Positions 735 to 53,533 of a stretch of DNA of 64,000 bases are shown in pieces. This DNA comes from an uncultured Kiritimatiellota bacterium (GTDB lineage Bacteria > Verrucomicrobiota > Kiritimatiellia > RFP12 > DVOR01): positions 49,309-113,308 of the forward strand of contig CALXMV010000002.1 of assembly GCA_944389565.1 (NCBI GenBank), given 5' to 3'. Position 1 is the stretch's first letter, and each line of letters opens with the position of its first letter. The notes below the pieces were generated by a model, which saw only the letters and a program-made list of their open reading frames with translations, was not told the origin of the DNA and did not search any database. The translations under genes and the position numbers were made by a program.

Positions 735-737
735 GCG

Positions 738-875
738 ATGGGCCCGCTAGGCCAACTAGGCCTTCTAGGCCCCCTGACGCCCCTTACGGGGCGACGGTCG
801 CGCCGTCAGGCGCGCCTCCCAGAAGACCCAGTCGGCACAGTGGGCCTATCCGGCCTATCAGGCCGCCCCCGCTGC
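738..875. repeat. Repeat element copy A: degenerate 9-bp periodic tract (GGCCNNCTA-type) plus a conserved hairpin core CGCCCCTTACGGGGCGACGGTCGCGCCGTCAGGCGCGCC
   Basis: Seen in sequence. Homologous to nt 2270-2420 and 25380-25640. Confidence 0.5.
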
Positions 876-881
876 ACGTAC

Positions 882-909
882 GATTCACGATTCACCATTC
901 ACCATTCAC
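882..909 (+). repeat. Tandem heptamer array (GATTCAC GATTCAC CATTCAC CATTCAC) followed by GGGG
   Basis: Seen in sequence. It lies immediately upstream of the RBS of the 950..2230 gene. Confidence 0.8.
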
Positions 910-949
910 GGGGCGGCTTTCGCCGCCCGCGCCTGAAAGGAGCGAAGCC

Positions 950-2230
950 ATGCCCACCCTTGAGGAACTGATCGCCGGCACCGAACGCCGCCGCCGCGCC
1001 GAAGACGCCCTGGCCTACGCCCGGGCCACCGGCCAAGACCTCGCCCTGCGCGACATCCCCACCCCCGCCGGCAGCCGCCCCTATCTGGTCGACGCCCAGG
1101 GCGCCATCACCGCGCCCCTCGCCCACGACCGCCCCCTCGCCCCCGAGGAATACGCCGCGCTCGACCGCGCCCTCGGCGCCGCCGGCGATTCACGATTCAC
1201 GACTCACGATTCACGGGGCGGCGGCGAAGCCGACGCCCTCCCCGCCCTCGCCGCCCTCTACGCCCCCGAACGCCGCGCCCGCGCCGTGCCCTACGCCCCA
1301 AGCGCCTACCTCGGCCCGGACGCCCTCGGCGCCCGCCGCGAGGAGGCGATGTGGGCCCGCGCCGCCACGCGCCGCGCCGCCCAGGACCTCCGCGCCGAGC
1401 GCGTCCGCGCCCTCCTGGCCGACGAACGCGCCTACGGCAACGCCCCCTCCGACCGCCAGCGCGCGGCCGCCGAACGCTGGGCCGACGCCCGCGCCCTCAC
1501 CGGCGACACCCGCACCCGCCAGGTCTTCGAACGCCGCGACCGCCTCGCCGCCGAGGCCCTCGCACGCGCCGACCGCCTCCGCGCGCAGGACGTCGCCGCC
1601 GAGACCGCCCGCCAGGCCTCCGCCGACGACCTCGCCGAGGCCATCGCCCAGGCCGACGCCCAGCGCGCCGCCGCCGACCTGGAGCGCCGGGGCACCCTCG
1701 CCGTCGCCCAGGAGGAGACCCGCCGCGCCAAGGCCGCCAACGCGAACGCCCTCGCCCTCGAACGCCTCCGCGGCGAGAACGCCCTCGGCCTCGCCGGCGC
1801 CAACAACGCCTCCTCCGAGCGCGTCGCACAGATCCGCGCCCAGGCCAACCGCGACGTCGCCCTCCTCCAAGGCACCCTCGCCGCCGCCCGCGCACAAGGC
1901 GCCCTCTCCCCCGAGCAGGACGCCGCCTTCAAGCGTGCCGAGACCCTCGTGCGCCTCTCCCAGTCCCTCGCCCGAGGCGGCCTCGACGAGACCGCCCTCT
2001 TCACCCTCGACAACGAGATCGACAACGACAAGACCCTCTCCCCCGAGGAGAAGGCCGCCCGCAAGGCCCAGCTCCGCCAGAACAACCCCGAGGCCGTCTC
2101 CTGGCTCCTCGGCGCCGCCGCCCGCCAGATGGAGGCCGCCGGCCTCCCCGGCATGCCCGCCCCCGGCGCCCCGCCCACCCCGGCGGCACCCGCGCCCGGC
2201 GCCCTCGCCGGCCTCGCCGACTGGAGGTGA
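950..2230 (+). CDS. Ala/Arg/Glu-rich predicted coiled-coil protein of unknown function, in the phage-like region
   Basis: ATG at 950 is preceded by GAAAGGAG at 935-942. It lies in the frame of ORF 731..2230. The composition suggests long alpha-helical coiled coil. An in-frame GATTCAC array sits at 1187-1214. Confidence 0.55.
   Translation: MPTLEELIAGTERRRRAEDALAYARATGQDLALRDIPTPAGSRPYLVDAQGAITAPLAHDRPLAPEEYAALDRALGAAGDSRFTTHDSRGGGEADALPALAALYAPERRARAVPYAPSAYLGPDALGARREEAMWARAATRRAAQDLRAERVRALLADERAYGNAPSDRQRAAAERWADARALTGDTRTRQVFERRDRLAAEALARADRLRAQDVAAETARQASADDLAEAIAQADAQRAAADLERRGTLAVAQEETRRAKAANANALALERLRGENALGLAGANNASSERVAQIRAQANRDVALLQGTLAAARAQGALSPEQDAAFKRAETLVRLSQSLARGGLDETALFTLDNEIDNDKTLSPEEKAARKAQLRQNNPEAVSWLLGAAARQMEAAGLPGMPAPGAPPTPAAPAPGALAGLADWR
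1187..1214 (+). repeat. Tandem heptamer array GATTCAC x4 (third unit GACTCAC) followed by GGGG; the same 33-mer recurs at 5495-5527
   Basis: Seen in sequence. It encodes DSRFTTHDSRG in frame. Confidence 0.8.
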
Positions 2231-2269
2231 GGGCAGGCGAACGGCGAGGAGCAAGAAGCGAGAAGGGCG

Positions 2270-2420
2270 CCCCCGCATGGGGCGACGGGCGATGCCCGTG
2301 GGCGTGGGTTGGCCGGGCGCGCCTCCCGGTGGGCCTAGGTGGCCTGGTGGGCCTAGACGGCCTATCCCCAAGCCGCGCAGGCCTGGCTGTAGGCGCGCGC
2401 CCCACACGTCGCCGCCGCCG
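2270..2420. repeat. Repeat element copy B (CCCCGCATGGGGCGACGG hairpin, GGCGCGCCTCCC, 9-bp periodic GGCCTNNNN tract)
   Basis: Seen in sequence. Lies just 3' of the coiled-coil gene. Confidence 0.45.
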
Positions 2421-2454
2421 ACCAGACGTGACGCGCGTCAGGGGGGCTATACGA

Positions 2455-3342
2455 TTATCGCGCTTGAGGCGCCGGGCAGAAGACGCCGATAAGCGACGTG
2501 TTTGTGATAATTCGCGCAAAACGCTTTTTGCGCATGAACAGGGTCGCCGCATGATGGAGACTTAACGTCAAATCCTGCAACGTCGCGTCTTCCTCGATCA
2601 TCTTGACCGTAAGCCCGGCCTTTTGTGCGGCCTGTGCGGAAATGTGACGGTCGTGCGTTTTGGACGTATCGTGTTGGGCGAAGACGCGCAATACATGGTC
2701 GATACGACTCGCTTTGTCCTCGGCGTCGCACAGCATCCCGGACTCAAGCCAGTCTTTTGAGACCTGGCGCGCCAGCTCCGTGGCTTTTTGGCATTCCCCC
2801 AACAGCGTCATGGGATACTTGCTGATAATCGGTTGCCATAACAACGCCAGATTGGGATTCTCCGCGATATCCTTCTTTGCCTGGGCGAATTCTTCGACGA
2901 TTGCGTCCGTCCGATATCCTCCAAGCGCAGGGTCGATCGGCCCCAGGCAAGAATGTTTGCCCATAAGGATCTCACGGGCGCACATCGCCAACAGCGTGCC
3001 GCACGACATGGCCATATGCGGGATGAACACGGAGATATTCGTGCCAAACACCGACCGTAAATAAGACCCGATGCCCTCGGTTGCAGGCACCGACCCTCCC
3101 GGAGTGTGCAAGAACAGGTCCAACCCGTCCTGCTTCGGCATCCTGTAAATGGCGGACATGAACCCTTCCATATCCGCTTCCTGGATGTTTGAGTCCTCGA
3201 ACCCGAAAAGGAACCCGGAGTAGTAGAGAATCAGGTTGCGCCCACGATGGGTCGCAAACTGATTCATGTACTTCTGCAAGACGTTGGCCACGCCATCCGG
3301 TGGGGTGGCCTCGTTCTGGATTTCGAGATTTGACGGTGCCAT
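2455..3342 (-). CDS. SDH-family (ClpP/crotonase-fold, S49-related) serine protease
   Basis: A minus-strand ORF. The Met at 3342 is preceded by AGGAAG in reverse complement. Motifs LHTPGGSV and HMAMSCGT are typical of the serine-dehydrogenase proteinase family. GC is lower than in flanking DNA. Confidence 0.6.
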   Translation of the reverse strand: MAPSNLEIQNEATPPDGVANVLQKYMNQFATHRGRNLILYYSGFLFGFEDSNIQEADMEGFMSAIYRMPKQDGLDLFLHTPGGSVPATEGIGSYLRSVFGTNISVFIPHMAMSCGTLLAMCAREILMGKHSCLGPIDPALGGYRTDAIVEEFAQAKKDIAENPNLALLWQPIISKYPMTLLGECQKATELARQVSKDWLESGMLCDAEDKASRIDHVLRVFAQHDTSKTHDRHISAQAAQKAGLTVKMIEEDATLQDLTLSLHHAATLFMRKKRFARIITNTSLIGVFCPAPQAR

Positions 3343-3353
3343 GGCAATTCTTC

Positions 3354-3551
3354 CTAGCGTTCGGAGACGACCGGGCTCTTCGCGTAGAATTGGTAAGGGG
3401 ACGGGCCGTGCGGGTCGAGCCCGGCACGTCGAAAAGCCTCGTCGCGAAAGACGAACGCATGGCCGGGCATGCGTGACTGGATATCCATCAATCGCAACAC
3501 CGTCTTGACGCGCACGTCTTTCAGAACGCCATTCGATACAAGCCTTTTCAT
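3354..3551 (-). CDS. Small hypothetical protein (65 aa) immediately upstream of the protease and coupled to it
   Basis: In reverse complement, GAAGGGAG plus a 6-nt spacer precedes the ATG at 3551. Its stop lies 12 nt before the protease start. No recognisable motif. Confidence 0.35.
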   Translation of the reverse strand: MKRLVSNGVLKDVRVKTVLRLMDIQSRMPGHAFVFRDEAFRRAGLDPHGPSPYQFYAKSPVVSER

Positions 3552-3696
3552 GCAAAACTCCCTTCGCTCGCCAGTATCAAACAAGAACGCATAGTATTAA
3601 ACCACAACCCGCGGCCCCCGCGCAACTTCCCCGGACATCCCGTCCATTTGCGTCCGCGCGCCCCGCAAACGCCCGCGCTTTTGGCACAGTGTCCTC

Positions 3697-6600
3697 GTGC
3701 GGGGCGCCCGCGCCGGGCCCATCCCCCCTCATACCACCACCCGGCGCGGGCGCCCCGCCTTCTCACACACGGGAGCGAACGCAGTGAGCGACACCGACAC
3801 CACCTTCCAGGAACTCTTCCACGTCATCGAGCGCGACACCGGCGCCGAGCGCTACGTCCCCGTCGCCCAAAGCCGGGACTACGCCCGCGCCATGCGCGAG
3901 CAAGGCCGCGACTTCGACCTCCTCGAGGACTGGGAGTCCGACCAAGGCGAGCGCGTCGCCGTCAACCCCGAGAAGCGCGAGGCCTTCCTCCAGGCCGCCC
4001 GCGAGCGCGGCATCGCCGTCCGCCAAAAACGCCCGATGTGGGACGGCGCCACCACCCTCTGGACCGACGGCCAGGGCGGCGCGATCGCCGTCGGCCAAGC
4101 CAAGCGCGAGGCCTACCAGGCCGCCGCCAAGGAACGCGGCCTCGCCGTCGCCGAGATCGGCCCCGAGCCCACCTTCCTCGACCCCGAGGAGGCCGACAAG
4201 GAACTGATGGGCCGCGAGCACGGCGGCTTCGACTGGGGCTCCCTCCTCGACGGCCTCAAGTTCCCCGCACGCCTGGCCGGCTCCGCCGCGCAGGGCATCC
4301 TCGCCCTGCCCACCCTCGCCGCCCTCGGCGGCGAATACGCCGCCGCCAAGGCCGGACTCATCGAGGAAGGCGCGCACCCCGTCTCCGGCGTCGGCATGAA
4401 GGCCATCGACGCCATCGAGCGCGCCAAGCCCGAATACACCTTCGCCAAAGACCAATCCCTCCCCGGCCGGGCCGCCAACGCCCTCATGGGCGGCCTCGAA
4501 TTCATGGGCGCGCTCGCCGCCGGCGGCGCCGCCGAGCAAGGCATCCGCGCCGCGGCCGGGGCCGCCACCCGCGGCGCCGGCGCCCTCGGCGCCACCCGCC
4601 AGGCCGCCGAAAGCATCGCCCGCGGCGGGGCCGCCGCGGCGGACGACGCCACCGCCCAGGCCGCCCGCGCCGCCGCGCCCAAGGCCACCGCCGCCGAGCA
4701 GAGCGCCATGCGCCAGGCCCTCGCCGACGTCGCCACCGCCATCCCCCCCGGCACCCCCGCACAGGAAGCCGCCAAGACCCTCGGCGAGGCCTACCTCCGC
4801 CGCCTCCCCGCCGCCCAATTCCGCGAGGGCGCCCGCCAATTCGCCCAGGCCGCCCTCCGCCCCGGCCTCTGGAAGGCAGCCCCCGTCGCCCTCGGCGCCC
4901 TCGACGTCCACCGCGCCTACGCCCAGGCCGGCCACTCCGAGGACAAGGCCATGCTCGCCACCCTCGGCGACGCCGCCCTCGGCTACCTCCTCGTCTCCCT
5001 CGGCGACGGCTTCGGCGCCTTCGGCGGGGCCGCGGCCACCACCGGCGGCACCCGCTTCTTCCGCGCCCTCGCCGGCAACGCCGCGCGCGACCCCAACCTC
5101 AGGGCAGCCCTCGCCGCCGGCGCCGCCAACGTCCTCGGCTCCGCCGCCACCGGCGCCGGCCAGGCGGCCGGCCACCTCGCCATCCTCCGCGGCGCCCTCG
5201 GCGAGGAAGAAATCTCCGACGCCGACCTCCTCGGCGCCGCCGCCCTCGGCGGCCTCTTCGGCGCCGTCCCCGCCGCCGCCCAGGCCATCCGCCCCATCCG
5301 CCAGGCCATCGCCGAGGACATCGCCACCGCCGCCGCCCGCGCCCAAGCCGCCGCGCAACGCGCGGCGCGTGAATCGCCGACCGTGAATCGTGAATCGCTC
5401 ACCTGGCGCCCGCTCGACGCCACCGACCCCAGCGCCCCGCCCGACACCCCGCAGGGGCCAAACGCGGGCGGCGTGTGGCGCAGCCCTACCCAACGCGATT
5501 CACGATTCACGACTCACGATTCACGGGCCATCGCGCCAAGCGCGATGGCCGCCCCCGTCGCCGTCAGCGACGCAGGCGACATCCTCTTCCGCTCCGGCGC
5601 CATCTGGCGCGCACGCACCGGCGACCTCCTCATGCCCTCGGGCGCCGTCGTCTCCCCCCAAGGCGACATCCTCACCGCCGCCCCACCGCCCGCGCCGCAA
5701 CCCCAGCAACCCACGCCCGCGCAGGACGACCTCTTCGGCCTCCCCCCGGACCCGGCGCAACCCCCCGCGCCGGCGGCGGGGCAAGACCCGGCCGGCACGC
5801 TCGCGCTCTACGACCTGCTGCGCGAGGCCGACGTCCAGGTGCACAACGTCCCGATCGGCCAAATCCAGGTCAACCGCGACATCAAGCAATTCAAGGCCGA
5901 TGCCGACCCCGTCACCGGCGTCGTCGCCGGCGAGGAACTCGGCGGCGAGTACCAAGCCGTCCCCGCCAAGCCCATCCTCCTCCTCGAGAAGCTTGACGGC
6001 AGCCTCGAGGTCGTCACCGGGCGCCACCGCCTCGACCTCGCCCGCCGCAACAACCTCCCCACCATCCCCGCCAACATCATCCGCATGGCCGACGGCTGGA
6101 CGCTCGACATGGCCCGCGCCCTCGACGCCTACGACAACATCCTCGACGAGAAGGGCTCCGACCAAGACTTCATCGACTTCTTCCGCCGCGCCCGAATCGA
6201 CCGCGCCACCGCCGAGGCCAAGGGGCTCGTCACGCGCAAGAAAGGCCGCGACGCCTTCGACGTCGCCGAATACGCCTCCGAGGACCTCTACGCGCTGGCC
6301 ATGGGCGACGCGCGCATGGACGCCCAGACCGCCGCCGCCATCGCCCGCGAGGCCCCCGTCCCCCGCGCCGCCGGCCAGCGCGCCCAAGGCTGGAACCAGA
6401 ACATCCAGGCCGCCGTCTCCCGCGCCGTCCTCGAGGAGGGCCTCCGCGCCGACGACGCCGCCATCATGGCCCGCTCCCTCCGCCAGGCCTACGCCCAGCG
6501 CATCCGCGAGCGCGGCCTCGAACAGCTCGACCTCTTCGGCAACGACGACACCTTCATCCTCGCCATGACCGTCGAGGCCAAGTTCGCCGCCCAGCAGATC

Positions 6601-9600
6601 CGCCAGATCGACTTCGACCTCCGCGGCCTCAAGACCGCCGCCGGCAAACAATCCGGCAACCTCGCCGCCCGCGACACCCTCATCCGGAAATACCGCCTCA
6701 AAGGCCCCGAGGACCGCGAGGGCATGGCCCGCGCCATCGCCGCGCTCGAGGAGCAGAAACGCCGCTGGCAGAACTACCACACCGACCCCGAGCTCGCCGA
6801 GCTCGCCCACGCCCACGCCAAACGCGCCCTCCGCCTCGAGGCCATCGAGCAAGAGGCCGCCGCCGAGGCGACGCAAAGTGTCGCCCGTGAATCGCCCGAG
6901 GGGCAAAGCCCCGCGCCGCAGCCCGCCCCCGCCGCCGAAGCGGCACCCGCCAATCAGCAGATCGGCCAATCGGCGAATCAGCCGGCGGCGCGAAGCGCCG
7001 AGCCGCGCGTGCTCCCCGCCGCGACCATGCGTGACGCGAAAGCCCACGTCGACAAGCTGGCCGAGGACAAGGTGGAGGTCTCCACGCTGAACGGCGACAC
7101 CCTCCGCTTCTCCAAGCAAATCAAGAAAGCCTACTCCAAGGCCGCCGAGAACCAATCCGACGACCGTGCCGCGCACTGGGCCGCCGTCGCCGCGCTCGAA
7201 CATCTGTGTCAAAGCGCGGACCACATCTTCAAGGAGCCGCCCCGGAACGGCAGCGCCGACATCGCCTACTATCACAAGTACGCCGCGCCGTTCGTCCACG
7301 GCGGGGTTGGCTACATCGCCAAGATCACGGCCAAGGAATATCCCAGGCAGACGGCCCGCGGTGTTTACTCCGTCGAGGCCGTCTCCCTCGAACGAATCGG
7401 CGACCGGGGAATCCATGCCTCCATCGCAAACGGACAGACGCTCGACCCGGTCGCCACTGATAAGATAGCCCAAATGGCCGAGCGCGTCAAGCGCTTTCTC
7501 GACCAGCCCGCCCTCGCGCCGGAAGCCGCCCCCATCGCGGCGGCGCCCGAAAGCCAAGCCGCCACCCTCCCCCTCGAGCCGCCCCCCAAACGCCCCCCGC
7601 TGGGCACCTCCCGCGCCCTCATCGCCTGGCAGCGCGCCCACGCCCTCCCCGGCCTCCCGCCGGACGCCGTCGTCCTCATCCAATACGGCGACTTCGTCGA
7701 GACCTACGAGAGCGACGTCCCCGCCCTCCGGGCCGTCACCGGCGCCGAGCCCACCACGCGCTACGGCCGCACCCTCGTCGGCGCACCCAAATCCGGACTC
7801 CCCGCCATCCTCGAGGCCCTCGCCGCCCAAGGACGAACCGTCGCCCTCGTCCCCCGCACCCTCGACCAAGCCGAGATCCGCACGCCCCCCGCCACCCCTA
7901 AGACGCCCCTCACCCAGGATCCGCCCAGCGCGCCGACGGACTCCCCCGCACGCCCCTACTGGGGCCCCAACCGCCCACTCCCCGACACCGGCAAACCCCG
8001 CATCGACGTCACCATCGGCGGGGACCCCACCTACACCGTCGAGGATTCCGGCCTCGACCCCTCCGCGCCCCTCCCAGACGACACCGTCGTCTGGGAGACC
8101 GCCACCCTCACCGGCGCCGGGCACGCCGTCGCCTGGCCCGTGCGCGCCTACGGCAAACCCACCGGCATCGACGGCGCCGCGCTCATCGGCGAGAGCGGCA
8201 TGCGCGCCATCCGAGAGGCCCTCGCCAAAGGCGCCGCCCTCGCCAAGGAACGCACCGCGCTCTACGCCGGGATCCCCGCCAACGAAAACGCGAAGGCCCG
8301 CGACAGACGCCTCGCACGCACCGCCGAGATCGAGGCGGGCGAGGCACAGACCGTCCAAGCCATCGAGGCCGTCCTCGACCGCGTCCGCGAACCCGCCGCG
8401 CGCTACGGCACCCCCGCCGTCGGCCACCTCGTCCACGGCAAGGACAAGGACGGCGCCATGCGCCTCTGGCGCATCGTGGAGCGCGGCAGCCAAAACTCCG
8501 ATACCCTCCTCCCCGACGGCACCGTCGTCCACACCCGCCAGCTCGACGGCGATTCGCACCAACGCTGGGTCACCCGCCCCGACGGCACCGACACCCCGCG
8601 CGAGACCTGGTGGCGCACCCGCAACGCGGACGGCACCGCCAACCCCTTCACCTCAATGGACGCCGACTTCTACGGCGACGCCCCCCAAACGCCCCCCGTC
8701 GAGGCGCCCGGCGGCACCCTCGCCAGCCCCGCGCCCGACGGGCCCTCCCTCGCCGCCTACGGCCTCACCGACGAACAGCTCAACGGCCCCGGCTTCCGCC
8801 CCCTGGCCAAGGGCGAGAACTTCGACACCGTCACCCAAGGCACCCTCGCCCGGCGCAACCAAACCGCCCGCAACGCGCGCCTCGGCACCGAAGCCGCCAT
8901 CCGCGGACGCAACGACGCCAGGAAGATTGGCCACACCGCAAAAGAAGGCGAGAACATTCGCGCCCACCAATACGCAGCCAAAAACGTCCTGAAACTCTAC
9001 GAACAGGCAGAGGTCGCCGTCCGCTCCGACAACTACAAGACCCACGGCAAAGGTAGCGCCCCCAAGACCTACGCCCGCCTCTTCGCCCCCTTCGTTTTCC
9101 AGGGGCGCACCTACGTCGCCGTCATCGCCCAATACGAGGCCAGGCAAAACGGCATCCACGCCATCGAGGTCCTCGACACAATCGAGGCGGGCCGCCTCCC
9201 GGAAGTCACCTCCGGCGAAACCCAACGGGACGCACGGCCGACCGAGAGGCAACCCGCCTCAAACACCCACAGTGTCCCACAAACTGTCCGTCCTGTCAAT
9301 CCCGCCACGCGCTCCGAACTCACCGAGCCCGTCATCGACCGCCTCATCGGCGAAAGCAAACGGCTCAACCCCCGCGTCCTCACCCTAGGCGAGGACGGCA
9401 CCCTCGCCGAGACCCCCACCGACGCGGCCGCCGTCCTCGCCGACGTGCGCGCCGCGGTGGCCCGCTTCGAGGAACGCGCCCGCGCCATCGCCAAATACCG
9501 CCCCGAGCCCGACCCCGCCGCCCTCGGCCGCTTCACCTTCCCCGCCCTCCCCGGCGCCACCCTCGACGTCGTCGATGGCCGGGCCACCCTCACCCTCCCC

Positions 9601-12600
9601 CCCGGCCACACCTTCCCGCAAGCCGCCGCCCTCGTCCAGGCCGTCCGCGCGCAACTCCCCGCCACCACGCGCCTCTCCCTCCAGGGCACCCGCAGCCGCT
9701 TCCTCGGCGCCTACGCCAACCCACCCGCCGCACAGCCTGCCGCCCCCCGCCCGGCCGAGACGTCCGTCGCCCCGTCAGGGGCGGGCGATTCGCAATCCGC
9801 GATTCACGATTCACGGGGCAGTGGGGCCTCCGGCCTCGCCGCCTACCGCGGCAGCCACCGCGCCCCCAGCCGCGCCGACATCGCCGGCGACGAGGACGAC
9901 ACCACCGTCCCCCTCCGCGACTGGGCCAAGATCGTCCCCGGCGACACCTTCACCCACCCGGAACGCTACTTCGGCGCCAACGCCCTCGCCCTCGAATCCG
10001 CGCGCCTCATCGCCCGGGCGTTGGCCGGCAAGGCCAAAACCATCACCGTCTACCGCGCCGTCCCCGCAGGCCTCCCCGAAGCGCGCCTGAACGACGGCGA
10101 CTGGGTCACCCCCAGCAAAGCCTACGCACAGACCCACGGCCGACACGCGCTGGGCGGCGACTACCGCATCCTCGCTCAGCGCGTCGCCATCGATGACCTC
10201 TTCTGGAACGGCGACAGCCCCGCCGAGCTCGGCTACGACAGCGGCCGCAACCCCGCCCCCGACACCCTCGCCAACCCCGCGCCCGGCGCGCCCGCCCCGC
10301 AAGGGGCACAGCCAATCGGCCAATCCGCCAACCCGCAAATCAGCCAAGCCGGCGCCTATCCCATGCGCGGGGAGGTGACGCCGCACCCCGCCAACCTCGG
10401 CGGCGCGCCAGGCAGTCCTGCCCGCGAGCACGCCCGCATCCCCCTCGCCCTCCCCGACCTCGTCCTGCTCTACAAGGAGCTCACCGAGGGCGCCGTCCCC
10501 CGCGTCATCCACAACCGCGCCAACATGGCCAGCGACCTCGGGCGCTACCGCGTCGGACAAAACGCCATCGAGCTCGCCGGCCGCGTCTTCGGCATCGTCG
10601 ACGACTCCGACCTCGCCACCCTCAAGGAGCGCCTCCGCGCCCGCGGCCTCTTCCGAAACGAGGACCCCGCCTGGTGCCTCACCATGCCCCGCGCCGCCAT
10701 CGCACGCGAGAAGCAGATCTCCGAGGAACGCCTCGCCCGCGAGCTCCGCGCCCTCATGACGCGCCGCGTCCGCGCCATGCACGACGACCTCCCCGCCGCC
10801 AAGGTCATGGCCCACGAGCTCTGGCACCTCATCGACGACCAGGACGGCGGCCTCCGCGGCCGCGGCGACCTCGTCGGCCACCTCGCCGCCCTCAAACACG
10901 CCGCCGCACAGGCCCTCCCCGAGCCCGCCTTCGCCGACCAGCCCGCCCTCGTCGCCGAGGCCAAAGCCTTCATCCGATGGTGGCGCGGCATCGGCCAAGA
11001 CGAGCCCTACTTCGACAAGCCAGAGGAGATGTACGCCGAGATCGGCGCCGCCTACTTCTGTGCCCCAGAGGACCTCAAAGCCCGCGCCCCCCAATGCTTC
11101 GCCGCCTGGGACGCCGCCCTCGCCCGCCACCCCGCCGCCCTCGATGCCGCCCAACGCGCCCGCGCCTACATCGCAACCGGCGGGCGCGACAAACGCCTCG
11201 CCAACGAGCTCGCCGCCACCTGGGGCCGCGAATACCAAGTCGCCCTCCGCCGCTACCGCAACGCCACCGAAGGCTTCGACAACTCCGCCGCCGCCTGGTG
11301 GGACCGCATCCTTGCCGCCCTCTGGGACGACCGCGCCCCAGCCCTCAACCTCCTCAAACGCGCCGTCCGCGCCGCCAAGGCCGAAAACAAACGCAACGCC
11401 AAGGACGACCCCGTCGCCGCCGAGACCCTCGCCGAGGCCGACAAACGCCTCGACGCCATGCTCGCCCACGCCACGCTCAACCACGTCCTCTACCGCCGCA
11501 AAGGCCCCAACAACGCCCGGCTCTACCTCGCCGACGTCAAGGGCGACTTCCTCCGCGCCCTCAACGCCATCGGCCAAGACCAAGACCTCGCCCGCACCTA
11601 CGTCGAGCTCTACGCCACCTACCATCGCATCATCGAGCTCGGCGGCCGCCCCATGCCCCTGGGCCAAACCCCCGCCTCCGCCCGCGCCGGCCTCCTCTAC
11701 ATGCTCCACGACGTCGGCCCCAAAACCTACCGCGCCATCGCGCGCGCCTGGGGCGTCTTCCGCGCCCTCTACGAGCGCGACGTCATCGAACGCCCCGCCA
11801 CCGCCGAGCTCCTCGGCCCCGACTTCGTCAACCTCATGCGCCAAAACGCCCACTACGTCACCTTCCGCCACGCCCCCACCCCCGAAACCCTCGCCCAAGC
11901 CGACCGGCGCGCCCACGAAAACCCCCTCGATGAAGCCGCCCGGCGCCTCCTCAAAACCGCCAACCCCGCCTCCGACGTCGCCAAGATCCTCAAACCCCTC
12001 AAAGGCTCCCACGAACCCATCCAAAACCCCCTCCTCGAGACCATGCGCACCGCCGTCGCCATCATCGTCGCCGCCGAGCGCAACCAAATTGTCCTCGACT
12101 GGGTCCGCGCCCTCCGCGAGCTCCACGCCCCCGACATCCTCGAGCGCGACGGCGCCCACACCACCAACAACCCACGCCTCGGCACCATCGACTTCTGGGA
12201 AAACGGCCAACGCAAAACCCTCATCGTCCCCCGCCGCGTCGCCGCCGGCTTCAACGACACCACCCCCGATTGGCTCCGCTCCATCACCGCCGCCACCCGC
12301 ATCCTCAACGCCGCCCTCACCACCAACAACCCCGGCTTCGTCCCCATCGCCCAAGCCCGCGACCTCTACTCCGCCGCCTACAACATCCGCGGCCTCCACC
12401 GCTGGCCCCTCCACTGGATCCCCGCCGCCGGTGACGCCGCCGCCCTCCTCACCCAATTCATCCCACCCGCCGCCATGCGCGCCATCGGCGAGCACCCCCT
12501 CGGCCGCCTCCTCCTCAACCCCAACACCATCGAATACTGGACCAGCTTCGGCAACCGCATGGCACGCCTCATCCACTCCGGCGACTTCCGCGGCGAGCTC

Positions 12601-15504
12601 GAACGCGCCCGCCAAGACCGACTCGCCGGCCGCGAGGCCCAAGCCCAACAGCGCGAATACCTCGTCCAGATGGCCCGCCGCGCCCTCCAAGACGGCATCC
12701 TCCTCAACATGGTCCAATACCGAAAGCTCACCTACGACGCCTCCGGCTGGAAAGCACTCTTCGACGAATACCACCTCGACTTCGACGAGCCCCCCCTCGA
12801 CCCCGAATCCCCCCTCCGCAAAACCCTCCTCGCCACCCCACGCGCCATCCGCGCCCTCTGGAACGCCACCGGCACCGCCTCCGAAATCGCCTCCGCCACC
12901 ACCAAACTCGCCGTCTACGCCTACCTCAACCAACCCCTCACACCCCCACCCGCCGCCACCCCCGCGCGGCGTGAAACGGAAATCGTGAATCGTGAATCGC
13001 GAGAAACGGGAGGGGTCGCGCGCCCCGCCCCCGCCGCGCCCCTCGCCAACCCCGCCCCCATGCGTCTGGCCAACGGCCCCGGCGGACTCCGCCTCGTCGA
13101 AGGCGCCGCCCCGCAGTCCAAGGACATCTTTGGCATGGACCCGGCCCAGATCGACGCCCTCGCCGCGCTCGCCGACCAAGCCGACGCCCTCCCCCCGGAC
13201 ACCCCCTGGGAGGACGACGCCCTCCGCCAACTCGCCCGAAAAGCCCAAATCGCCCGCGAACGCGCCAAGGCCGACGCCGACCCCCACTGGTACCACGCAC
13301 TCCCCTGGGAACGCCGAGCCCAAGCCGCCGTCGCTCAAACCCGCGCGACCATGGGCCGTGGCACCGACAACATCGACACCCCCGAACGCGACGCGCTCCG
13401 CCGCCGGATCGCCGAGCGCCTCTACAACGGCGGCTCCGCCGAGAAAGGCCGCAAACTCTTCGTCGTCATGGGCCTCCCCGGCAGCGGCAAATCCTCCGCC
13501 GTCGTCAAGAACCTCAAAGCCGAGGTCGGCGACCTCGTCGAAGTCGACGCCGACGAGGCCAAAACCCACCTTCCCGAGTTCCAAGGCGGTAAAAACGCCG
13601 ACATGGTGCATACCGAATCCGGCAAAATCGCCGAGGACTTCCTGCTGCGCGGACTCTGTTTCCCAAACGGCGACAACATCGTCTTCCCAACCGTCGGCAA
13701 AAACACCCAAAAGCTCGAACACCTCTTGCGCGAAGCCAAAGAAGCCGGCTACGCCGTCTACCTCTACAACGTCCGCATCCCCATCGCCGAATCCGCCAAC
13801 CGCGCACTCCGCCGCTACGTCGAGACCGGACGCTTCGTCCCCCCGGACTACATCGTCGACGCCGTCGGCGACAAACCCGACCGTACTTTTGCTATACTCA
13901 AAGACAGAAAGGACCTAGTCGATGGCTACGCAGACCTCTCCAACGACGTCCCCTTCGGCGCCCGACCCCAAACCCTGGAAACATCCCGTCGACCCCCTGC
14001 AGGACTGGGACAACGAGGACTATCTGTATCTCTGGATCCTCGCCAAGGAATACCTGGCCAAACAGCTCGGCCGGGAACCGACCTCGGCGGAGGTGCGCGC
14101 GGAAATGGGCTGGTAGGCGACACCCTCGCCCTCCCCGCCCCCGGCGCCGCCCCCGACGCCCCACGCGGCGCAGGCCAAGCCCCCGGGCCCGACAACCCCA
14201 TAATCTCCGACGCCGACGCCGACGCCAAGGCCATCCTCGAATCCATCGTCTGGCGCGCCACCGTCCTCGCCGGCGACCCCACCTTCGACATCCGCGGCAT
14301 CCTCCTCACCCCCATCGAGCTCGTCTTCGGCCCCTTCATCAACGCCGCCCTCAAAGGCACCTTCCGCTTCGTCCAGACCATCGCCGACACCCTCCCCGAC
14401 GCCCGCCCCGACGGCCGCCCCCGACGCCGCACCCCACTCCTCAACGCCGCCTCCTACGCCGGCAAGATCGGCGCCACCCTCGCCCAACGCCTCATCCTCA
14501 CCGCCCTCTCCACCGGCGGCCTCGTCACCGCCGCCGCCCTCGCCCTCTTCCGCGCCGCCACCGGCAACCCAAACGCCACCGAGCAAGACCTCATGGACTC
14601 CCCCCTCGGCCCCGCCGTCCGCGGCGCCGAACGCCTCGGCCAAGGCTACCGCAACATCTCCCCCTACCTCCTCCAAAACTACAACACCCTCCCACTCTAC
14701 GTCGACGGCGACATCACCATCGCCCTCACCCTCCCCATCGCCGACGAAGAGCGCTTCCCCATCCTCCTCCTCGACGCCACCCTCAACAAACTCGGCTTCC
14801 CCTGGACCCCCAACCCCGCCACCGGCCCCGCCGACGCCGCCGCCAACCTCATCGGCGCCCCCGTCAACTCCCTCCGCGGCCAAGGCACCCTCATCCAATA
14901 CCTTCACCTCCTCTCCCCCTTCCTCTTCAACTACAACCCCTACGACAACTTCCGCGGCCACAAAATCCTCCCCGAGGCCGAATTCGCCGCCCGCTGGGAC
15001 AACCCCGCCGCCGCCGCCACCATCGCCAACCGCCTCATCGAATCCACCCCCCTCGCCATCGCCTGGAAACCACCCCAGCCCCTCACCCCCGAGCAACAAG
15101 CCTCCCTCGACCGCACCCCCTGGCTCGGCCGCTTCCACGCCACCCTCACCCGCGCCCCCCTCCTCTCCACCATCGCCGGCCGCCTCATCCGCGTCCAGAT
15201 CGGCGGCGAGGCCGACCGCATCCGCCGCCTCCGCCGCCTCGACCAGCAACAAGCCCTCGCCGTCCGCCTCCTCGCCCGCCAGAACTACGCCCTCACCCAG
15301 CTCGGCCTCCCCCCGCAGATCCCCCAAGACCTCCCCCCCGAATACGCCAAGGACTACTTCGAGGCCTGGTTCGCCCGCCAAGACGAGCACCTCGCCGCCC
15401 GCTCAAGCGCCCACCGCCGCAAACGCCTCATCCAAGACGCCCTCGCCATCCGCGACCCCAACCTCCGCGACCGCGCCCTCCGCGCCCTCCGACACCTCCC
15501 CTGA
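3697..15504 (+). CDS. Giant multidomain 'polyvalent' protein of 3,935 aa. Contains a ParB-like nuclease domain (nt ~5805-6110), a twice-repeated unknown ~90-aa domain (nt ~7108-7410 and ~8920-9210), an HExxH zincin-like motif (nt ~10812-10826) and a zeta-toxin-like P-loop kinase domain (nt ~13380-13905).
   Basis: A single stop-free frame of 11.8 kb, far beyond chance. ParB signature VTGRHRLDLARRNN. Metallopeptidase motif AHELWH. Walker A GLPGSGKS followed by a zeta-toxin-like region. A GTG at 3697 begins the ORF. An alternative GTG at 3784 has a better RBS (GGGAG at 3771-3775). Confidence 0.75.
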   Translation: MRGARAGPIPPHTTTRRGRPAFSHTGANAVSDTDTTFQELFHVIERDTGAERYVPVAQSRDYARAMREQGRDFDLLEDWESDQGERVAVNPEKREAFLQAARERGIAVRQKRPMWDGATTLWTDGQGGAIAVGQAKREAYQAAAKERGLAVAEIGPEPTFLDPEEADKELMGREHGGFDWGSLLDGLKFPARLAGSAAQGILALPTLAALGGEYAAAKAGLIEEGAHPVSGVGMKAIDAIERAKPEYTFAKDQSLPGRAANALMGGLEFMGALAAGGAAEQGIRAAAGAATRGAGALGATRQAAESIARGGAAAADDATAQAARAAAPKATAAEQSAMRQALADVATAIPPGTPAQEAAKTLGEAYLRRLPAAQFREGARQFAQAALRPGLWKAAPVALGALDVHRAYAQAGHSEDKAMLATLGDAALGYLLVSLGDGFGAFGGAAATTGGTRFFRALAGNAARDPNLRAALAAGAANVLGSAATGAGQAAGHLAILRGALGEEEISDADLLGAAALGGLFGAVPAAAQAIRPIRQAIAEDIATAAARAQAAAQRAARESPTVNRESLTWRPLDATDPSAPPDTPQGPNAGGVWRSPTQRDSRFTTHDSRAIAPSAMAAPVAVSDAGDILFRSGAIWRARTGDLLMPSGAVVSPQGDILTAAPPPAPQPQQPTPAQDDLFGLPPDPAQPPAPAAGQDPAGTLALYDLLREADVQVHNVPIGQIQVNRDIKQFKADADPVTGVVAGEELGGEYQAVPAKPILLLEKLDGSLEVVTGRHRLDLARRNNLPTIPANIIRMADGWTLDMARALDAYDNILDEKGSDQDFIDFFRRARIDRATAEAKGLVTRKKGRDAFDVAEYASEDLYALAMGDARMDAQTAAAIAREAPVPRAAGQRAQGWNQNIQAAVSRAVLEEGLRADDAAIMARSLRQAYAQRIRERGLEQLDLFGNDDTFILAMTVEAKFAAQQIRQIDFDLRGLKTAAGKQSGNLAARDTLIRKYRLKGPEDREGMARAIAALEEQKRRWQNYHTDPELAELAHAHAKRALRLEAIEQEAAAEATQSVARESPEGQSPAPQPAPAAEAAPANQQIGQSANQPAARSAEPRVLPAATMRDAKAHVDKLAEDKVEVSTLNGDTLRFSKQIKKAYSKAAENQSDDRAAHWAAVAALEHLCQSADHIFKEPPRNGSADIAYYHKYAAPFVHGGVGYIAKITAKEYPRQTARGVYSVEAVSLERIGDRGIHASIANGQTLDPVATDKIAQMAERVKRFLDQPALAPEAAPIAAAPESQAATLPLEPPPKRPPLGTSRALIAWQRAHALPGLPPDAVVLIQYGDFVETYESDVPALRAVTGAEPTTRYGRTLVGAPKSGLPAILEALAAQGRTVALVPRTLDQAEIRTPPATPKTPLTQDPPSAPTDSPARPYWGPNRPLPDTGKPRIDVTIGGDPTYTVEDSGLDPSAPLPDDTVVWETATLTGAGHAVAWPVRAYGKPTGIDGAALIGESGMRAIREALAKGAALAKERTALYAGIPANENAKARDRRLARTAEIEAGEAQTVQAIEAVLDRVREPAARYGTPAVGHLVHGKDKDGAMRLWRIVERGSQNSDTLLPDGTVVHTRQLDGDSHQRWVTRPDGTDTPRETWWRTRNADGTANPFTSMDADFYGDAPQTPPVEAPGGTLASPAPDGPSLAAYGLTDEQLNGPGFRPLAKGENFDTVTQGTLARRNQTARNARLGTEAAIRGRNDARKIGHTAKEGENIRAHQYAAKNVLKLYEQAEVAVRSDNYKTHGKGSAPKTYARLFAPFVFQGRTYVAVIAQYEARQNGIHAIEVLDTIEAGRLPEVTSGETQRDARPTERQPASNTHSVPQTVRPVNPATRSELTEPVIDRLIGESKRLNPRVLTLGEDGTLAETPTDAAAVLADVRAAVARFEERARAIAKYRPEPDPAALGRFTFPALPGATLDVVDGRATLTLPPGHTFPQAAALVQAVRAQLPATTRLSLQGTRSRFLGAYANPPAAQPAAPRPAETSVAPSGAGDSQSAIHDSRGSGASGLAAYRGSHRAPSRADIAGDEDDTTVPLRDWAKIVPGDTFTHPERYFGANALALESARLIARALAGKAKTITVYRAVPAGLPEARLNDGDWVTPSKAYAQTHGRHALGGDYRILAQRVAIDDLFWNGDSPAELGYDSGRNPAPDTLANPAPGAPAPQGAQPIGQSANPQISQAGAYPMRGEVTPHPANLGGAPGSPAREHARIPLALPDLVLLYKELTEGAVPRVIHNRANMASDLGRYRVGQNAIELAGRVFGIVDDSDLATLKERLRARGLFRNEDPAWCLTMPRAAIAREKQISEERLARELRALMTRRVRAMHDDLPAAKVMAHELWHLIDDQDGGLRGRGDLVGHLAALKHAAAQALPEPAFADQPALVAEAKAFIRWWRGIGQDEPYFDKPEEMYAEIGAAYFCAPEDLKARAPQCFAAWDAALARHPAALDAAQRARAYIATGGRDKRLANELAATWGREYQVALRRYRNATEGFDNSAAAWWDRILAALWDDRAPALNLLKRAVRAAKAENKRNAKDDPVAAETLAEADKRLDAMLAHATLNHVLYRRKGPNNARLYLADVKGDFLRALNAIGQDQDLARTYVELYATYHRIIELGGRPMPLGQTPASARAGLLYMLHDVGPKTYRAIARAWGVFRALYERDVIERPATAELLGPDFVNLMRQNAHYVTFRHAPTPETLAQADRRAHENPLDEAARRLLKTANPASDVAKILKPLKGSHEPIQNPLLETMRTAVAIIVAAERNQIVLDWVRALRELHAPDILERDGAHTTNNPRLGTIDFWENGQRKTLIVPRRVAAGFNDTTPDWLRSITAATRILNAALTTNNPGFVPIAQARDLYSAAYNIRGLHRWPLHWIPAAGDAAALLTQFIPPAAMRAIGEHPLGRLLLNPNTIEYWTSFGNRMARLIHSGDFRGELERARQDRLAGREAQAQQREYLVQMARRALQDGILLNMVQYRKLTYDASGWKALFDEYHLDFDEPPLDPESPLRKTLLATPRAIRALWNATGTASEIASATTKLAVYAYLNQPLTPPPAATPARRETEIVNRESRETGGVARPAPAAPLANPAPMRLANGPGGLRLVEGAAPQSKDIFGMDPAQIDALAALADQADALPPDTPWEDDALRQLARKAQIARERAKADADPHWYHALPWERRAQAAVAQTRATMGRGTDNIDTPERDALRRRIAERLYNGGSAEKGRKLFVVMGLPGSGKSSAVVKNLKAEVGDLVEVDADEAKTHLPEFQGGKNADMVHTESGKIAEDFLLRGLCFPNGDNIVFPTVGKNTQKLEHLLREAKEAGYAVYLYNVRIPIAESANRALRRYVETGRFVPPDYIVDAVGDKPDRTFAILKDRKDLVDGYADLSNDVPFGARPQTLETSRRPPAGLGQRGLSVSLDPRQGIPGQTARPGTDLGGGARGNGLVGDTLALPAPGAAPDAPRGAGQAPGPDNPIISDADADAKAILESIVWRATVLAGDPTFDIRGILLTPIELVFGPFINAALKGTFRFVQTIADTLPDARPDGRPRRRTPLLNAASYAGKIGATLAQRLILTALSTGGLVTAAALALFRAATGNPNATEQDLMDSPLGPAVRGAERLGQGYRNISPYLLQNYNTLPLYVDGDITIALTLPIADEERFPILLLDATLNKLGFPWTPNPATGPADAAANLIGAPVNSLRGQGTLIQYLHLLSPFLFNYNPYDNFRGHKILPEAEFAARWDNPAAAATIANRLIESTPLAIAWKPPQPLTPEQQASLDRTPWLGRFHATLTRAPLLSTIAGRLIRVQIGGEADRIRRLRRLDQQQALAVRLLARQNYALTQLGLPPQIPQDLPPEYAKDYFEAWFARQDEHLAARSSAHRRKRLIQDALAIRDPNLRDRALRALRHLP
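5369..5396 (-). repeat. GTGAATC heptamer array (reverse orientation): GTGAATC gccgacc GTGAATC GTGAATC
   Basis: Seen in sequence. It encodes RESPTVNRES in a linker of the giant gene. Confidence 0.8.
5497..5524 (+). repeat. GATTCAC x4 array, identical to 1187-1214
   Basis: Seen in sequence. Forms an inverted pair with 5369-5396 across 100 bp. Confidence 0.8.
9787..9814 (+). repeat. Heptamer array GATTCGC AATCCGC GATTCAC GATTCAC followed by GGGG
   Basis: Seen in sequence. It encodes a linker with the sequence GDSQSAIHDSRG. Confidence 0.75.
12971..12998 (-). repeat. Heptamer array, reverse orientation: GTGAAAC GGAAATC GTGAATC GTGAATC
   Basis: Seen in sequence. It encodes RRETEIVNRESRE. Confidence 0.75.
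13887..13898 (+). promoter_or_regulatory. Extended -10-like element TTTTGCTATACT internal to the giant gene, 23 nt upstream of the embedded ORF
   Basis: An exact 12-mer copy of the element at 28701-28712, upstream of the gene at 28722. It fits the TGnTATACT extended -10 pattern. The surrounding region is locally AT-rich. Confidence 0.4.
13922..14116 (+). CDS. Embedded (overprinted) small ORF of 64 aa, in the +1 frame relative to the giant gene
   Basis: ATG at 13922 is preceded by AGAAAGGAC. GC3 is ~80% in this frame, whereas the giant-gene frame falls to ~38% over the same stretch. The product has ordinary globular composition (W, Y, K and L). The segment LAKQLGREPTSAEVRAEMG resembles sigma-70 region 3.0 (…EMGREPTPEELAERM…). 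Confidence 0.35.
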   Translation: MATQTSPTTSPSAPDPKPWKHPVDPLQDWDNEDYLYLWILAKEYLAKQLGREPTSAEVRAEMGW

Positions 15505-15724
15505 AATCCCCATCCCGCTTGCACAAATCCCATCACACCCCGACATAACCCATTAAACCCCCAACGCAAACACATAGGCTCCTAGGTTTCAGTCGTGGCT
15601 CCACCCCGGATTGGCCGTGCTGATTTGCTTTGCCGTTGCGAGCAATCTTGTTTTCCGAGAGACGTTTTGCTATTCTTATACGCGTTGATGGGCGAGACGC
15701 CCAGATGTTCACACGGAGTTTGCC

Positions 15725-25379: not shown

Positions 25380-25640
25380 TCGGAGAATTGGCCGACTCGG
25401 GAGGGTTTGGGGGCAGAGTCGGGCTGGGCCCACTAAGCCCACTAAGCCTGCTGGGCCTACTGGGAACGCCCCATGCGGGGCGACGGAGCGGCTCGGCGGG
25501 CGAGGATGGCGGCCTGCCCGGGCGTAGGCCACGCCCGTCGCGCCGTCAGGCGCGCCCAGTGGGCCCAGTCGTCCCAGTGGGCCCAGAAGGCCCATTCGGC
25601 ATCGCCGCCTCCCCAAGGGCGAAAATCGGGAGGGTTCGGG
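25380..25640. repeat. Repeat element copy C: shares the hairpin core and 9-bp periodic GGGCCCAGT/CACTAAGCC tracts with copies A and B, and is flanked by TCGGGAGGGTT(T/C)GGGGGC direct repeats
   Basis: Seen in sequence (core CGCCCCATGCGGGGCGACGG…GTCGCGCCGTCAGGCGCGCC). Confidence 0.5.
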
Positions 25641-42310: not shown

Positions 42311-42320
42311 GGAGACCGCC

Positions 42321-53440: not shown

Positions 53441-53533
53441 CACAAAAGGGCCTTTTTGTTATCATGCGCGAACTTTTTTCCCCAATGGAGGCCATGTCGT
53501 AGTGTGCGTGGCCGGTTCATGGAGATCGCAGTC

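Follow-up and report, generated by a model that had tools for sequence, protein, structure and literature searches.

The DNA analysed here, called the window throughout, is a stretch of 64,000 nucleotides from an uncultured Kiritimatiellota bacterium (GenBank contig CALXMV010000002.1, positions 49,309 to 113,308), and the features of interest are short tandem arrays of the heptamer GATTCAC, or of its reverse complement GTGAATC, in and between the genes of a phage-like element. Window position 1 corresponds to position 2758 of the source contig (ENA ERZ24773550 NODE_298, 68,349 nt). The window is bacterial chromosome of ~70% GC with housekeeping genes from 15.7 kb onward, among them LysM, FtsW/RodA, Rho, NifU/NifS, OmpA, LptF/G and LpxA, and its left 15.5 kb is the edge of the element, which is prophage-like. 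In this part the element encodes a coiled-coil-like protein of 426 aa (950..2230, + strand), a ClpP/S49-type protease (2455-3555, − strand; phrog_11747, E = 8.5e-75) and a giant polyvalent-type open reading frame (ORF) of 3935 aa (3697..15504, + strand), in which a weak ParB/Srx-like match (aa 758-823), an LPD3 domain (aa 1112-1217), a phrog_2579-like domain (aa 2048-2186), a Zeta toxin domain (aa 3253-3390) and an HExxH motif were recognized. Further to the left, 2.4 kb outside the window, lies a gene for a 125-aa four-helix bundle of the Avd-like '23S rRNA intervening sequence protein' family PF05635 (contig 12-389, − strand). Window positions 1-16000 gave no megablast match in phage and plasmid collections, a homologue search with the first 1063 aa of the giant protein found none, a protein scan of viral contigs with its aa 2041-3091 returned no relative, and no tRNA or att landmark was found. 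Neither ORF 72-734 nor the giant ORF as counted from the GTG at 3697 had an identical protein on record, since the gene caller had chosen other start codons.

An exact search of the window yields 16 copies of GATTCAC or GTGAATC, compared with 5.76 +/- 2.48 expected from dinucleotide shuffling, and none of 100 shuffled sequences reaches 16. All of them are confined to positions 882-12998. A first-pass annotation made from the letters alone had assigned the heptamers to seven loci within the first 13 kb and nowhere else, and the coordinates and strands it gave are correct. Tandem Repeats Finder (TRF) independently returns period-7 arrays at 880-910, 1186-1215, 5382-5397, 5496-5525, 9800-9815 and 12970-12999. 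With the 14-mer GATTCACGATTCAC and up to 3 mismatches, 15 of 18 matches fall into these seven loci, 3.7 being expected window-wide. Six loci are 28-nt blocks of four heptad lengths, each with two to three exact and one to two degenerate heptads, and the + strand reads GATTCAC at 882, 1187, 5497 and 9787, and GTGAATC at 5369, 6887 and 12971. The annotation had placed every array in an inter-domain linker or upstream of the coiled-coil gene; this needs refinement, as 882-909 is intergenic and upstream of that gene on the + strand, 1187-1214 lies inside it, and the other five lie inside the giant ORF (aa 558-567, 601-610, 1064-1066, 2031-2040 and 3092-3101).

The intergenic array at 882..909 (+; GATTCAC GATTCAC CATTCAC CATTCAC) lies 41 nt before the start codon of the coiled-coil gene (ATG at 950, with the Shine-Dalgarno sequence AAAGGAG) and is followed by a hairpin, GGGGCGGC-TTTC-GCCGCCC. 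The array at 1187..1214 (+; GATTCAC GATTCAC GACTCAC GATTCAC) is read in frame as aa 80-89 of the coiled-coil gene. In the giant ORF, the arrays at 5369..5396 (−; GTGAATC GCCGACC GTGAATC GTGAATC, the stop-containing orientation on the + strand) and 5497..5524 (+; GATTCAC GATTCAC GACTCAC GATTCAC) are the left and right arms of a palindromic unit of 156 nt, which is exactly 52 codons. The fold of 5360-5535 has -92.4 kcal/mol (z = -6.2), and a perfect 11-bp GC-rich stem, GGCCATCGCGC-CAA-GCGCGATGGCC (5526..5550, +; z = -3.07), stands in the ORF directly after the right arm. Solo arrays are predicted to be unpaired and adjoin GC hairpins. The single GTGAATC heptad at 6887..6893 (−) has its TGA in a frame other than that of the ORF and is flanked on either side by a short GC hairpin, the array at 9787..9814 (+; GATTCGC AATCCGC GATTCAC GATTCAC) is preceded by the hairpin GTCGCCCC-GTCA-GGGGCG, and at 12971..12998 (−; GTGAAAC GGAAATC GTGAATC GTGAATC) the in-frame TGA is mutated to GGA.

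The 2757 contig nt left of the window hold three further arrays, all perfect. One is at the extreme contig end (contig 1-23), where the contig breaks off inside it; (GATTCAC)4 at contig 463-490 is upstream of two divergent genes, at a distance of 18 nt from one of 696 aa and of 73 nt from the PF05635 gene; and in (GTGAATC)4 at contig 2596-2623 the first of the TGA triplets terminates the 696-aa gene. The element thus has ten arrays in 18 kb with one common unit. The adjacent 48.5 kb of chromosome to its right do not contain a single exact GATTCAC or GTGAATC, so that the heptamers are not common in the host chromosome as sampled here, and in this host the GAYTCAC unit is confined to the phage-like element. 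No RNA family of Rfam matched window positions 1-16000 at E <= 0.1. An assembly artefact was considered and rejected, as the arrays are internal, in frame and repeated in independent assemblies, and the PF05635 gene architecture described below is also found in complete plasmids of cultured strains.

As 7 and 3 are coprime, (GTGAATC)3 gives TGA in all three frames, whereas (GATTCAC)n is open in every frame and always encodes DSRFTIH. An array in GTGAATC sense thus ends any ORF while one in GATTCAC sense can be read through, and the copies in the giant ORF accordingly persist either as GATTCAC or with a mutation in the one heptad whose TGA would be in frame. In the array at 5369-5396 the replaced heptad (5376-5382, GCCGACC) is the very one that would carry an in-frame TGA, the same is true of the altered heptad 12978-12984 (GGAAATC) in the array at 12971-12998, and a degenerate array in a related giant gene (locus L043, 2686-2716) is likewise mutated at the heptad with the in-frame TGA. 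These alterations indicate that the ORF is translated and that the arrays are kept or tolerated as DNA rather than as peptide. The GC content at third codon positions (GC3) in the giant ORF frame is 0.85-0.94 in each segment between arrays, and as such values flank every array, the arrays are translated in one continuous frame. In-frame peptides had been predicted by the first-pass annotation and are found as DSRFTTHDSR (aa 80-89 of the coiled-coil gene), RESPTVNRES and RETEIVNRES.

Module junctions of the giant protein and the likeness to parS

Five relatives of the giant protein from related metagenomes (P0001-P0005; loci L035, L036 and L041-L043) contain the same modules in different orders, and their breakpoints, at about aa 626, 1077, 1990/2214, 3079-3091 and 3122, coincide with positions of heptamer or octamer arrays of the window. 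The heptad at 6887-6893 marks the C-terminal breakpoint of the ParB-like module. At 12971-12998 the homology of the relatives ends (aa 3079-3091), and the Zeta module starts at aa 3122, about 20 aa further. An insert peculiar to the window, ~aa 1991-2213 with the phrog_2579-like domain, is absent from all five relatives and has the heptamer array 9787-9814 at its left edge and an octamer array at its right edge. This octamer array (GCCAATCC-like, 5.1 copies; 10311..10351, +) occupies the linker aa 2205-2219, and the homologous junction in the relatives carries (GCCAATCA)n or (CCAAGCCT)n. Another one (GCCAATCA-like, 4.4 copies; 6949..6983, +) occupies the linker aa 1085-1096, and the same octamer stands at module junctions of the relatives, where octamer arrays were located in linkers of L035 (9827-9845), L036 (6224-6242, 6578-6603 and 10024-10050) and L041 (2829-2863). 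The first-pass annotation had suggested looking for the same heptamer arrays in related elements: the relatives have no GATTCAC arrays but the octamers at the same junctions, and in the loci of the related metagenome-assembled genomes only one isolated heptad (L036) and the degenerate array of L043 were seen.

How arrays come and go is illustrated by a remnant of the ParB-like module in locus L255, which has 96% nucleotide identity to the window and carries blocks of 33 nt, (GTGAATC)4, and of 28 nt, (CCAAGCCT)n, in the homologous linker. The window has neither block, and as the two sequences differ by whole blocks, arrays are gained or lost as discrete indels of ~28 nt. The remnant itself (ENA ERZ16268187 scaffold_29762, 1196-2521) is decayed, stands alone in another genome between a PRiA4_ORF3 gene and hisS, and matches window 6095-6739; pieces of the giant gene are thus scattered in related chromosomes. 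The giant polyvalent ORF carries repeat insertions at the DNA level at its module seams. A fallback offered by the first-pass annotation, which saw DNA elements in coding sequence at module junctions, holds as far as location is concerned: a single ORF contains arrays of either orientation, the heptads that would stop it have been altered, and breakpoints in the relatives lie at arrays.

Adding or deleting one heptad would shift the frame, 7 not being divisible by 3, and the arrays might act as contingency loci that switch between a truncated and a full-length giant protein. Copy numbers of intergenic arrays do differ between close phages, and the coding frame changes at one octamer array of the relative L036. 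We nevertheless consider such a switch highly improbable, as the ORF-internal arrays are interrupted, with at most 2 consecutive perfect heptads, which suppresses slippage, whereas 3 of the 4 intergenic arrays of the element are perfect runs of at least 3.

Arrays of ~28 nt could also be recombination linkers, whose microhomology shuffles domains of polyvalent proteins between co-infecting elements. The differing module orders with their breakpoints at heptamer or octamer arrays fit this proposal, as do the array-edged insert at aa 1991-2213 and the identity of 1187-1214 with 5497-5524 over 28 nt, or ~33 nt when flanks are counted. Yet the relatives shuffle their modules without GATTCAC arrays, no recombinant pair sharing an array as crossover was found, and most arrays elsewhere sit in ordinary intergenic spacers of unrelated genes, and we regard this explanation as rather improbable.

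The first-pass annotation had preferred to see the arrays as ParB-type boxes resembling P1 parS, that is, as centromere or silencing-nucleation sites, iteron-like, for the ParB-like domain of the giant protein or for another ParB of the element. A local likeness is real: P1 parS and the window motif have in common a TTCAC core and an adjacent TCGCC, and CGATTCAC can be compared with CGATTTCAC and GTGAATCGCC with GTGAAATCGCCA, but an indel of 1 nt is needed in these alignments. The canonical half-site of chromosomal parS is GTTTCAC, to which GATTCAC is identical in 6 of 7 positions. At 5369, 6887 and contig 2617 GTGAATC is followed by a box B-like TCGCC, and some (+) arrays have GGCGA in front of them. 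The agreement with box B ends before its sixth base, and in DNA of 70% GC such flanks are to be expected. The confinement of the arrays to the element within the window also speaks for such sites, and so does the domain itself, as the giant protein matches phrog_723 weakly (E = 1.3e-3; motif VVTGRHRLDLARR) and P0007, a homologue with 36% identity, matches PF02195 faintly. Judged from these matches, a ParB/Srx-type N-domain is plausible; a Pfam ParBc match was not obtained for aa 611-1063 even at E <= 1.

The architecture, on the other hand, is a different one. P1 parS is a single locus by parAB with four non-tandem boxes round a site for integration host factor (IHF) and a cognate helix-turn-helix (HTH) ParB. 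In its record (K02380.1), the annotated ParB sites atttcac, atttcaa, gtgaaat and cgatttcac lie around an AT-rich spacer together with TCGCCA boxes, and the box A heptamer ATTTCA(C/A) agrees with GATTCAC in 5 of 7 positions or after a deletion of 1 nt. A bipartite parS around an IHF bend beside parA-parB is not what is found here, as the units are contiguous 7-bp repeats at ten dispersed positions, and neither the window nor the 2.7 kb to its left contains a ParA or ParB operon. Searches for an HTH in the giant protein and for ParA were negative, the best BLASTP score of P1 ParB against the giant protein was E = 21, and a PDB sequence search returned nothing relevant. The canonical ParB-parS site is a 16-bp palindrome, TGTTTCACGTGAAACA, and abutting inverted half-sites of this kind were not seen: the palindromic GTTTCACGTGAAAC has, at up to 3 mismatches, 2 chance-level matches in the window, both outside the array region, GATTCACGTGAATC has none in the window, and the (+)(-) arrangement of heptads within 200 nt occurs in 0 of the 231 array-bearing loci that were collected. 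Moreover, the arrays are widespread in genomes and phages without a relative of the giant protein, while relatives of the giant gene lack them. We therefore give the proposal very little credence. Real and non-random as they are, the GATTCAC arrays are very probably not ParB boxes, and a tempting but, as we see it, wrong parS/ParB annotation of the window can be removed.

GAYTCAC arrays in other phages and bacteria

The sequence (GATTCAC)2GAYTCAC was found in 31 viral contigs from ~10 unrelated families with a GC content of 39-70%, whereas two composition-matched control heptamers were found in 1 and 3 viral contigs only. Bacterial contigs with this sequence number at least 120 and belong to many phyla; represented among the matches listed are Acidobacteriota, Bacteroidota, Ignavibacteria, Chloroflexota, Nitrospirota, Verrucomicrobiota, Proteobacteria, Patescibacteria and Actinomycetota. 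In metagenomes, 88 contigs contain the 28-mer of 1187-1214 without any change. In 80 bacterial loci, TRF lists 273 rows of period 7 as against 26 of period 6 and 43 of period 8, and 264 arrays with 1872 heptads, of which 1036 are GATTCAC and 213 GACTCAC, give the consensus GAYTCAC. The modal copy number is 4 (79 of 230 arrays), and it varies from 3 to at least 5 among near-identical phages (family A). Phages and bacteria of many phyla therefore have one unit in common. For the giant protein, the coiled-coil protein and the protease alike, a tblastn search of 1.57 Mb of array-bearing loci revealed no relatives, and in the literature searched no description of the GATTCAC array sequence was found.

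Gene boundaries are where the arrays are found. Those read as GTGAATC adjoin a stop codon or provide one, and 80 of 242 close a frame of at least 100 codons; those read as GATTCAC are located ahead of start codons, or in frame within linkers, as in a fusion of portal and MuF proteins (L028). In that locus (IMGVR_UViG_3300035698_004289, 6837-9995) the fusion has 1052 aa and an intein-like insert with Hint and LAGLIDADG-like motifs, and a (GATTCAC)3 array in the linker between portal and MuF is followed by an SD-like (Shine-Dalgarno-like) GAGG and a GTG, for which reason the MuF part may also be made separately. Inverted pairs are formed with strict polarity: all 34 non-redundant pairs with a spacer of up to 200 nt in the 231 loci have the order 5'-(GTGANTC)n...(GANTCAC)n-3' (34:0). 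Paired copies would form long stem-loops that are terminator-like in many genomes, and A-runs and T-runs flank several of the pairs (L155, L113 and L129), which resemble bidirectional intrinsic terminators. A role of the paired stems in termination or RNA processing may be envisaged.

Several functions were considered and discarded. Clusters of GANTC (CcrM-type) methylation sites are not supported, as the 836 imperfect heptads vary mostly between T and C at position 3, and neither G1 nor C5 is specially conserved among them. A sense-specific translational leader was rejected because arrays within 40 nt of a Shine-Dalgarno sequence and start codon number ~10 in GATTCAC sense and 6 in GTGAATC sense when relatives are collapsed. 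An association with HNH endonuclease or packaging genes does not hold either, since the neighbours are diverse (primase, minor tail protein, terminase, portal-MuF, HNH and others).

The ω sites of plasmid pSM19035 consist of contiguous 7-bp WATCACW heptads in both orientations and in 4-10 copies. With this similar layout and the TCAC core in mind, one could take the arrays for operators of a small heptad-binding repressor like the ribbon-helix-helix (RHH) protein ω, or for a stoperator-like network of a phage repressor, all the more as arrays lie near gene starts and the giant protein has a Zeta-toxin domain. With WATCACW, however, GAYTCAC shares only that core, no RHH/ω family match was obtained among the ORFs scanned (the left part of the element is beyond the contig end), arrays also occur in protein linkers and at 3' ends, and one unit spans phyla with a GC content of 39-70%. 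Operators of this type are in our opinion a most unlikely explanation.

Heptanucleotide repeats have reportedly been known since 1990 and are said to have emerged in 2007 as the long simple repeats with the strongest over-representation in many bacteria. The GATTCAC arrays belong to this known class, as represented by Xanthomonas GGGAATC, TAACTGA and the cyanobacterial short tandemly repeated repetitive (STRR) sequences. They are head-to-tail 7-nt units, mostly intergenic at gene boundaries, their copy number is polymorphic and they are present or absent at homologous sites (family A phages; L255 compared with the window), and their inverted pairs have one polarity (34:0, and z = -6.2 for the pair of the window). 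Abundance throughout the host chromosome, which is a feature of the class, was not seen in the 48.5 kb examined. The STRR sequences, said to have been described by Mazel et al. in 1990 (cited in PMC4692102), are reportedly tandem heptamers that are intergenic and also lie in tolerant parts of genes, and serve as a repeat for chromosomal fingerprinting; in these points they resemble the arrays, but the units are others and they are described as chromosomal and not from phage-like elements. In Xanthomonas, 186 sets of (GGGAATC)n were described, mostly of four units, with 70-75 pairs that are all convergent; they are transcribed, mostly intergenic, vary in length between close species and were read as G-quadruplex formers (Rehm et al. 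2015, PMC4692102). This unit is one base from GTGAATC and has the majority of four units and the one-polarity pairs forming stem-loops in common with our arrays. In contrast, it is G-rich, occurs chromosome-wide in one genus and has been reported neither from phages nor from within a giant ORF; nor has it been linked to PF05635 in the report, although a structure of this family, 2GSC, comes from X. campestris. The TAACTGA repeats of Beggiatoaceae, Cyanobacteria and Bacteroidetes also lie at gene boundaries, where they often overlap the stop codon upstream, and inside ORFs they are tolerated between modules or at the ends of the protein; one orientation stops all frames, the other is translatable, and horizontal spread is suspected (MacGregor 2015, PMC4679880). 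Apart from the different unit, they differ from the GAYTCAC arrays in that most lie in one orientation a few nt upstream of start codons, whereas GAYTCAC arrays show no clear orientation bias there and have prominent inverted pairs.

Membership in this class would also be compatible with a passive origin, in which the arrays are microsatellites born by slippage and, in the giant ORF, fossils of spacers between fused genes, their proximity to a PF05635 gene being coincidental. Heptamers are the most over-represented and most abundant long simple repeats in many bacteria, with polymerase slippage named as their origin (Mrazek 2007, cited in PMC4679880 and PMC4692102), and copy numbers differ among close phages. 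The (-)/(+) pair at aa 558-610 resembles a typical intergenic unit, the relative P0003 lacks the N-terminal module aa 1-557 and is homologous from ~aa 626, just past the (+) array at aa 601-610, and four relatives end 100-220 aa past the position equivalent to aa 3091. Slippage does not account well for a unit that is 10-30 times commoner in viral contigs than composition-matched heptamers, for the strict polarity of pairs, or for the complete four-heptad block of L255 inside a GC-rich linker without a slippage seed, and the association of arrays with PF05635 genes is strong and unit-specific. This origin is thus, in our estimate, unlikely, though it deserves more weight than the others discussed above.

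PF05635 genes and their bracketing arrays

The product of the gene at contig 12-389 matches PF05635 with E = 5.6e-39 and PDB entry 2GSC (X. campestris) with E = 3.7e-23. A (GTGAATC)4 array lies 73 nt upstream of its start, and its 3' end runs into a second array. This protein is the sole protein of the element with relatives in array-bearing loci: in L184 a PF05635 gene is nested in (GTGAATC)n...(GATTCAC)n, and in L194 another is nested in (GGTAGAA)n...(TTCTACC)n. When viral contigs were scanned with an alignment of four sequences, 17 loci were obtained (L257-L273), 14 of them distinct. In 13 of the 14 distinct loci an array of ~4-5 copies stands upstream of the gene and one with the reverse-complement unit (0-1 mismatch) stands downstream, and the arm unit has 7-8 nt and is different at nearly every locus. 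Bracketing in these loci concerns 14 of 17 four-helix-bundle ORFs as against 3 of 63 others, and among extra nearby arrays 8 of 21 share the local arm unit, compared with 7 of 307 in a cross-locus control. Empty inverted pairs also lie near PF05635 genes. Complete plasmids of cultured strains (L274-L279) show the bracketing in 5 of 6 cases (Nostoc edaphicum, Gemmatirosa, Calothrix, Geminocystis and Picosynechococcus), and there the PF05635 genes sit between operon genes, for example those for ribonucleotide reductase subunits or cas10/cmr3. In the literature searched, no description of an association of PF05635 with such arrays was found.

In systems of repetitive extragenic palindromic (REP) sequences and their REP-associated tyrosine transposases (RAYT), including REPIN, a gene is flanked by inverted short repeats, solo or paired copies specific to the genome are dispersed, and the pairs form hairpins. 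The RAYT is an HUH transposase, and the REP is a palindromic 20-35-mer. The loci described above likewise combine a single gene and its flanking repeat with dispersed copies and hairpin-forming pairs, and a unit is shared, as in the ten arrays of the element; they differ in that the protein is a helical bundle of 120 aa without known catalysis and the repeat consists of tandem units of 7-8 nt. A second comparison is offered by the intervening sequences of 23S rRNA, which Ralph and McClelland are said to have described in 1993 (cited in PMC10053308) as carrying an S23p/PF05635 ORF, with an inverted-repeat stem that is processed. There too the family is encoded inside an insert bounded by inverted repeats, but the PF05635 gene considered here lies outside rRNA, has arms of tandem heptamers, and copies of its arm are dispersed, including in coding sequence. 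The '23S rRNA IVP' (intervening sequence protein) was reported among proteins associated with CRISPR arrays (PMC10910872), which would be expected if repeat finders pick up the arms.

On balance we lean towards the view that the arrays of the window are a GAYTCAC member of a widespread class of heptanucleotide tandem repeats and that, in this element, they form a REP/RAYT-like arrangement with its PF05635 gene. In such a system, the small PF05635 gene would be bracketed by its own short repeat, with solo and paired copies dispersed elsewhere; these copies would come and go as DNA indels of ~28 nt and would persist only where they are tolerated, as in intergenic spacers and disordered protein linkers. 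The dispersed copies may derive from or serve the PF05635 cassette, whose protein, if pentameric, may bind them. The PDB entries 2GSC and 2RLD have 5 chains each, which we take to be compatible with a pentamer like that of bAvd. We put forward as a tentative and rather doubtful extension that the PF05635/TIGR02436 proteins, Avd-like and probably pentameric, are sequence-specific partners of the arrays, with one heptad per subunit and ~4-5 units per array, in an unrecognised repeat system of the REPIN/RAYT type.

Several points weigh against the REP/RAYT-like view. In the source contig the two arrays at the PF05635 gene are direct instead of inverted copies, and one of them is cut off by the contig end, so that the canonical architecture is not seen there, and only 3 of the 231 array-bearing loci have a PF05635 gene within the few kb fetched. 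The latter fits the logic of REP and RAYT but is equally expected without any link. That GAYTCAC is shared by many phyla while PF05635 arms are locus-specific is awkward for a cognacy of one gene and one unit, and the giant-gene relatives have the same module breakpoints with octamer arrays in place of GATTCAC arrays. A 125-aa helical bundle without known catalytic activity cannot mobilise DNA alone. Finally, all data are computational, and the window is a metagenome assembly.

With the PF05635 family, a concrete candidate partner is nevertheless at hand for heptanucleotide repeats, which are without an accepted function. If the proposed partnership is real, the arms would spread as units of ~28 nt through the genomes of bacteria and phages into intergenic spacers, operon junctions and protein linkers, the excess of heptanucleotide repeats in prokaryotes (STRR, GGGAATC, TAACTGA and GAYTCAC arrays) would be explained, and a large family of orphan 'four helix bundle' genes would obtain a function.

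Other features of the window

Another kind of repeat, a host-type REP-like composite, occurs in the element and the chromosome alike (747-864, 2265-2364 and 25424-25594). It is built of inverted arrays of 9-mers (CTAGGCC.. / GGCCTAT.., GCCCACTAA / CAGTGGGCC) around the conserved GC hairpins GCCCCnnnnGGGGCGACGG and GCGCGCCGTCAGGCGCGCC, and the chromosomal copy lies downstream of the stop codon of the minus-strand rho gene. Its hairpin GTCGCCCCnnnnGGGGCG also precedes heptamer arrays, at window 9764-9783 and contig 443-462. The Rho factor encoded by this gene (22972-24858, −) has 628 aa and a long N-terminal extension, its RNA-binding domain starting from aa 264.

A stretch of lower GC content (0.61-0.62) at 40601-43385 holds two neighbouring restriction-type genes of the GmrSD_N (DUF262) family, which may form a small defence island. 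A second very long ORF, at 53456-60115 (+), encodes 2219 aa with a GC3 of 0.92 and has no Pfam or PHROG match; just upstream of it, at 53282-53389, lie tandem repeats of 22-45 nt (AAACCCTAAGGGGTCTG-type).

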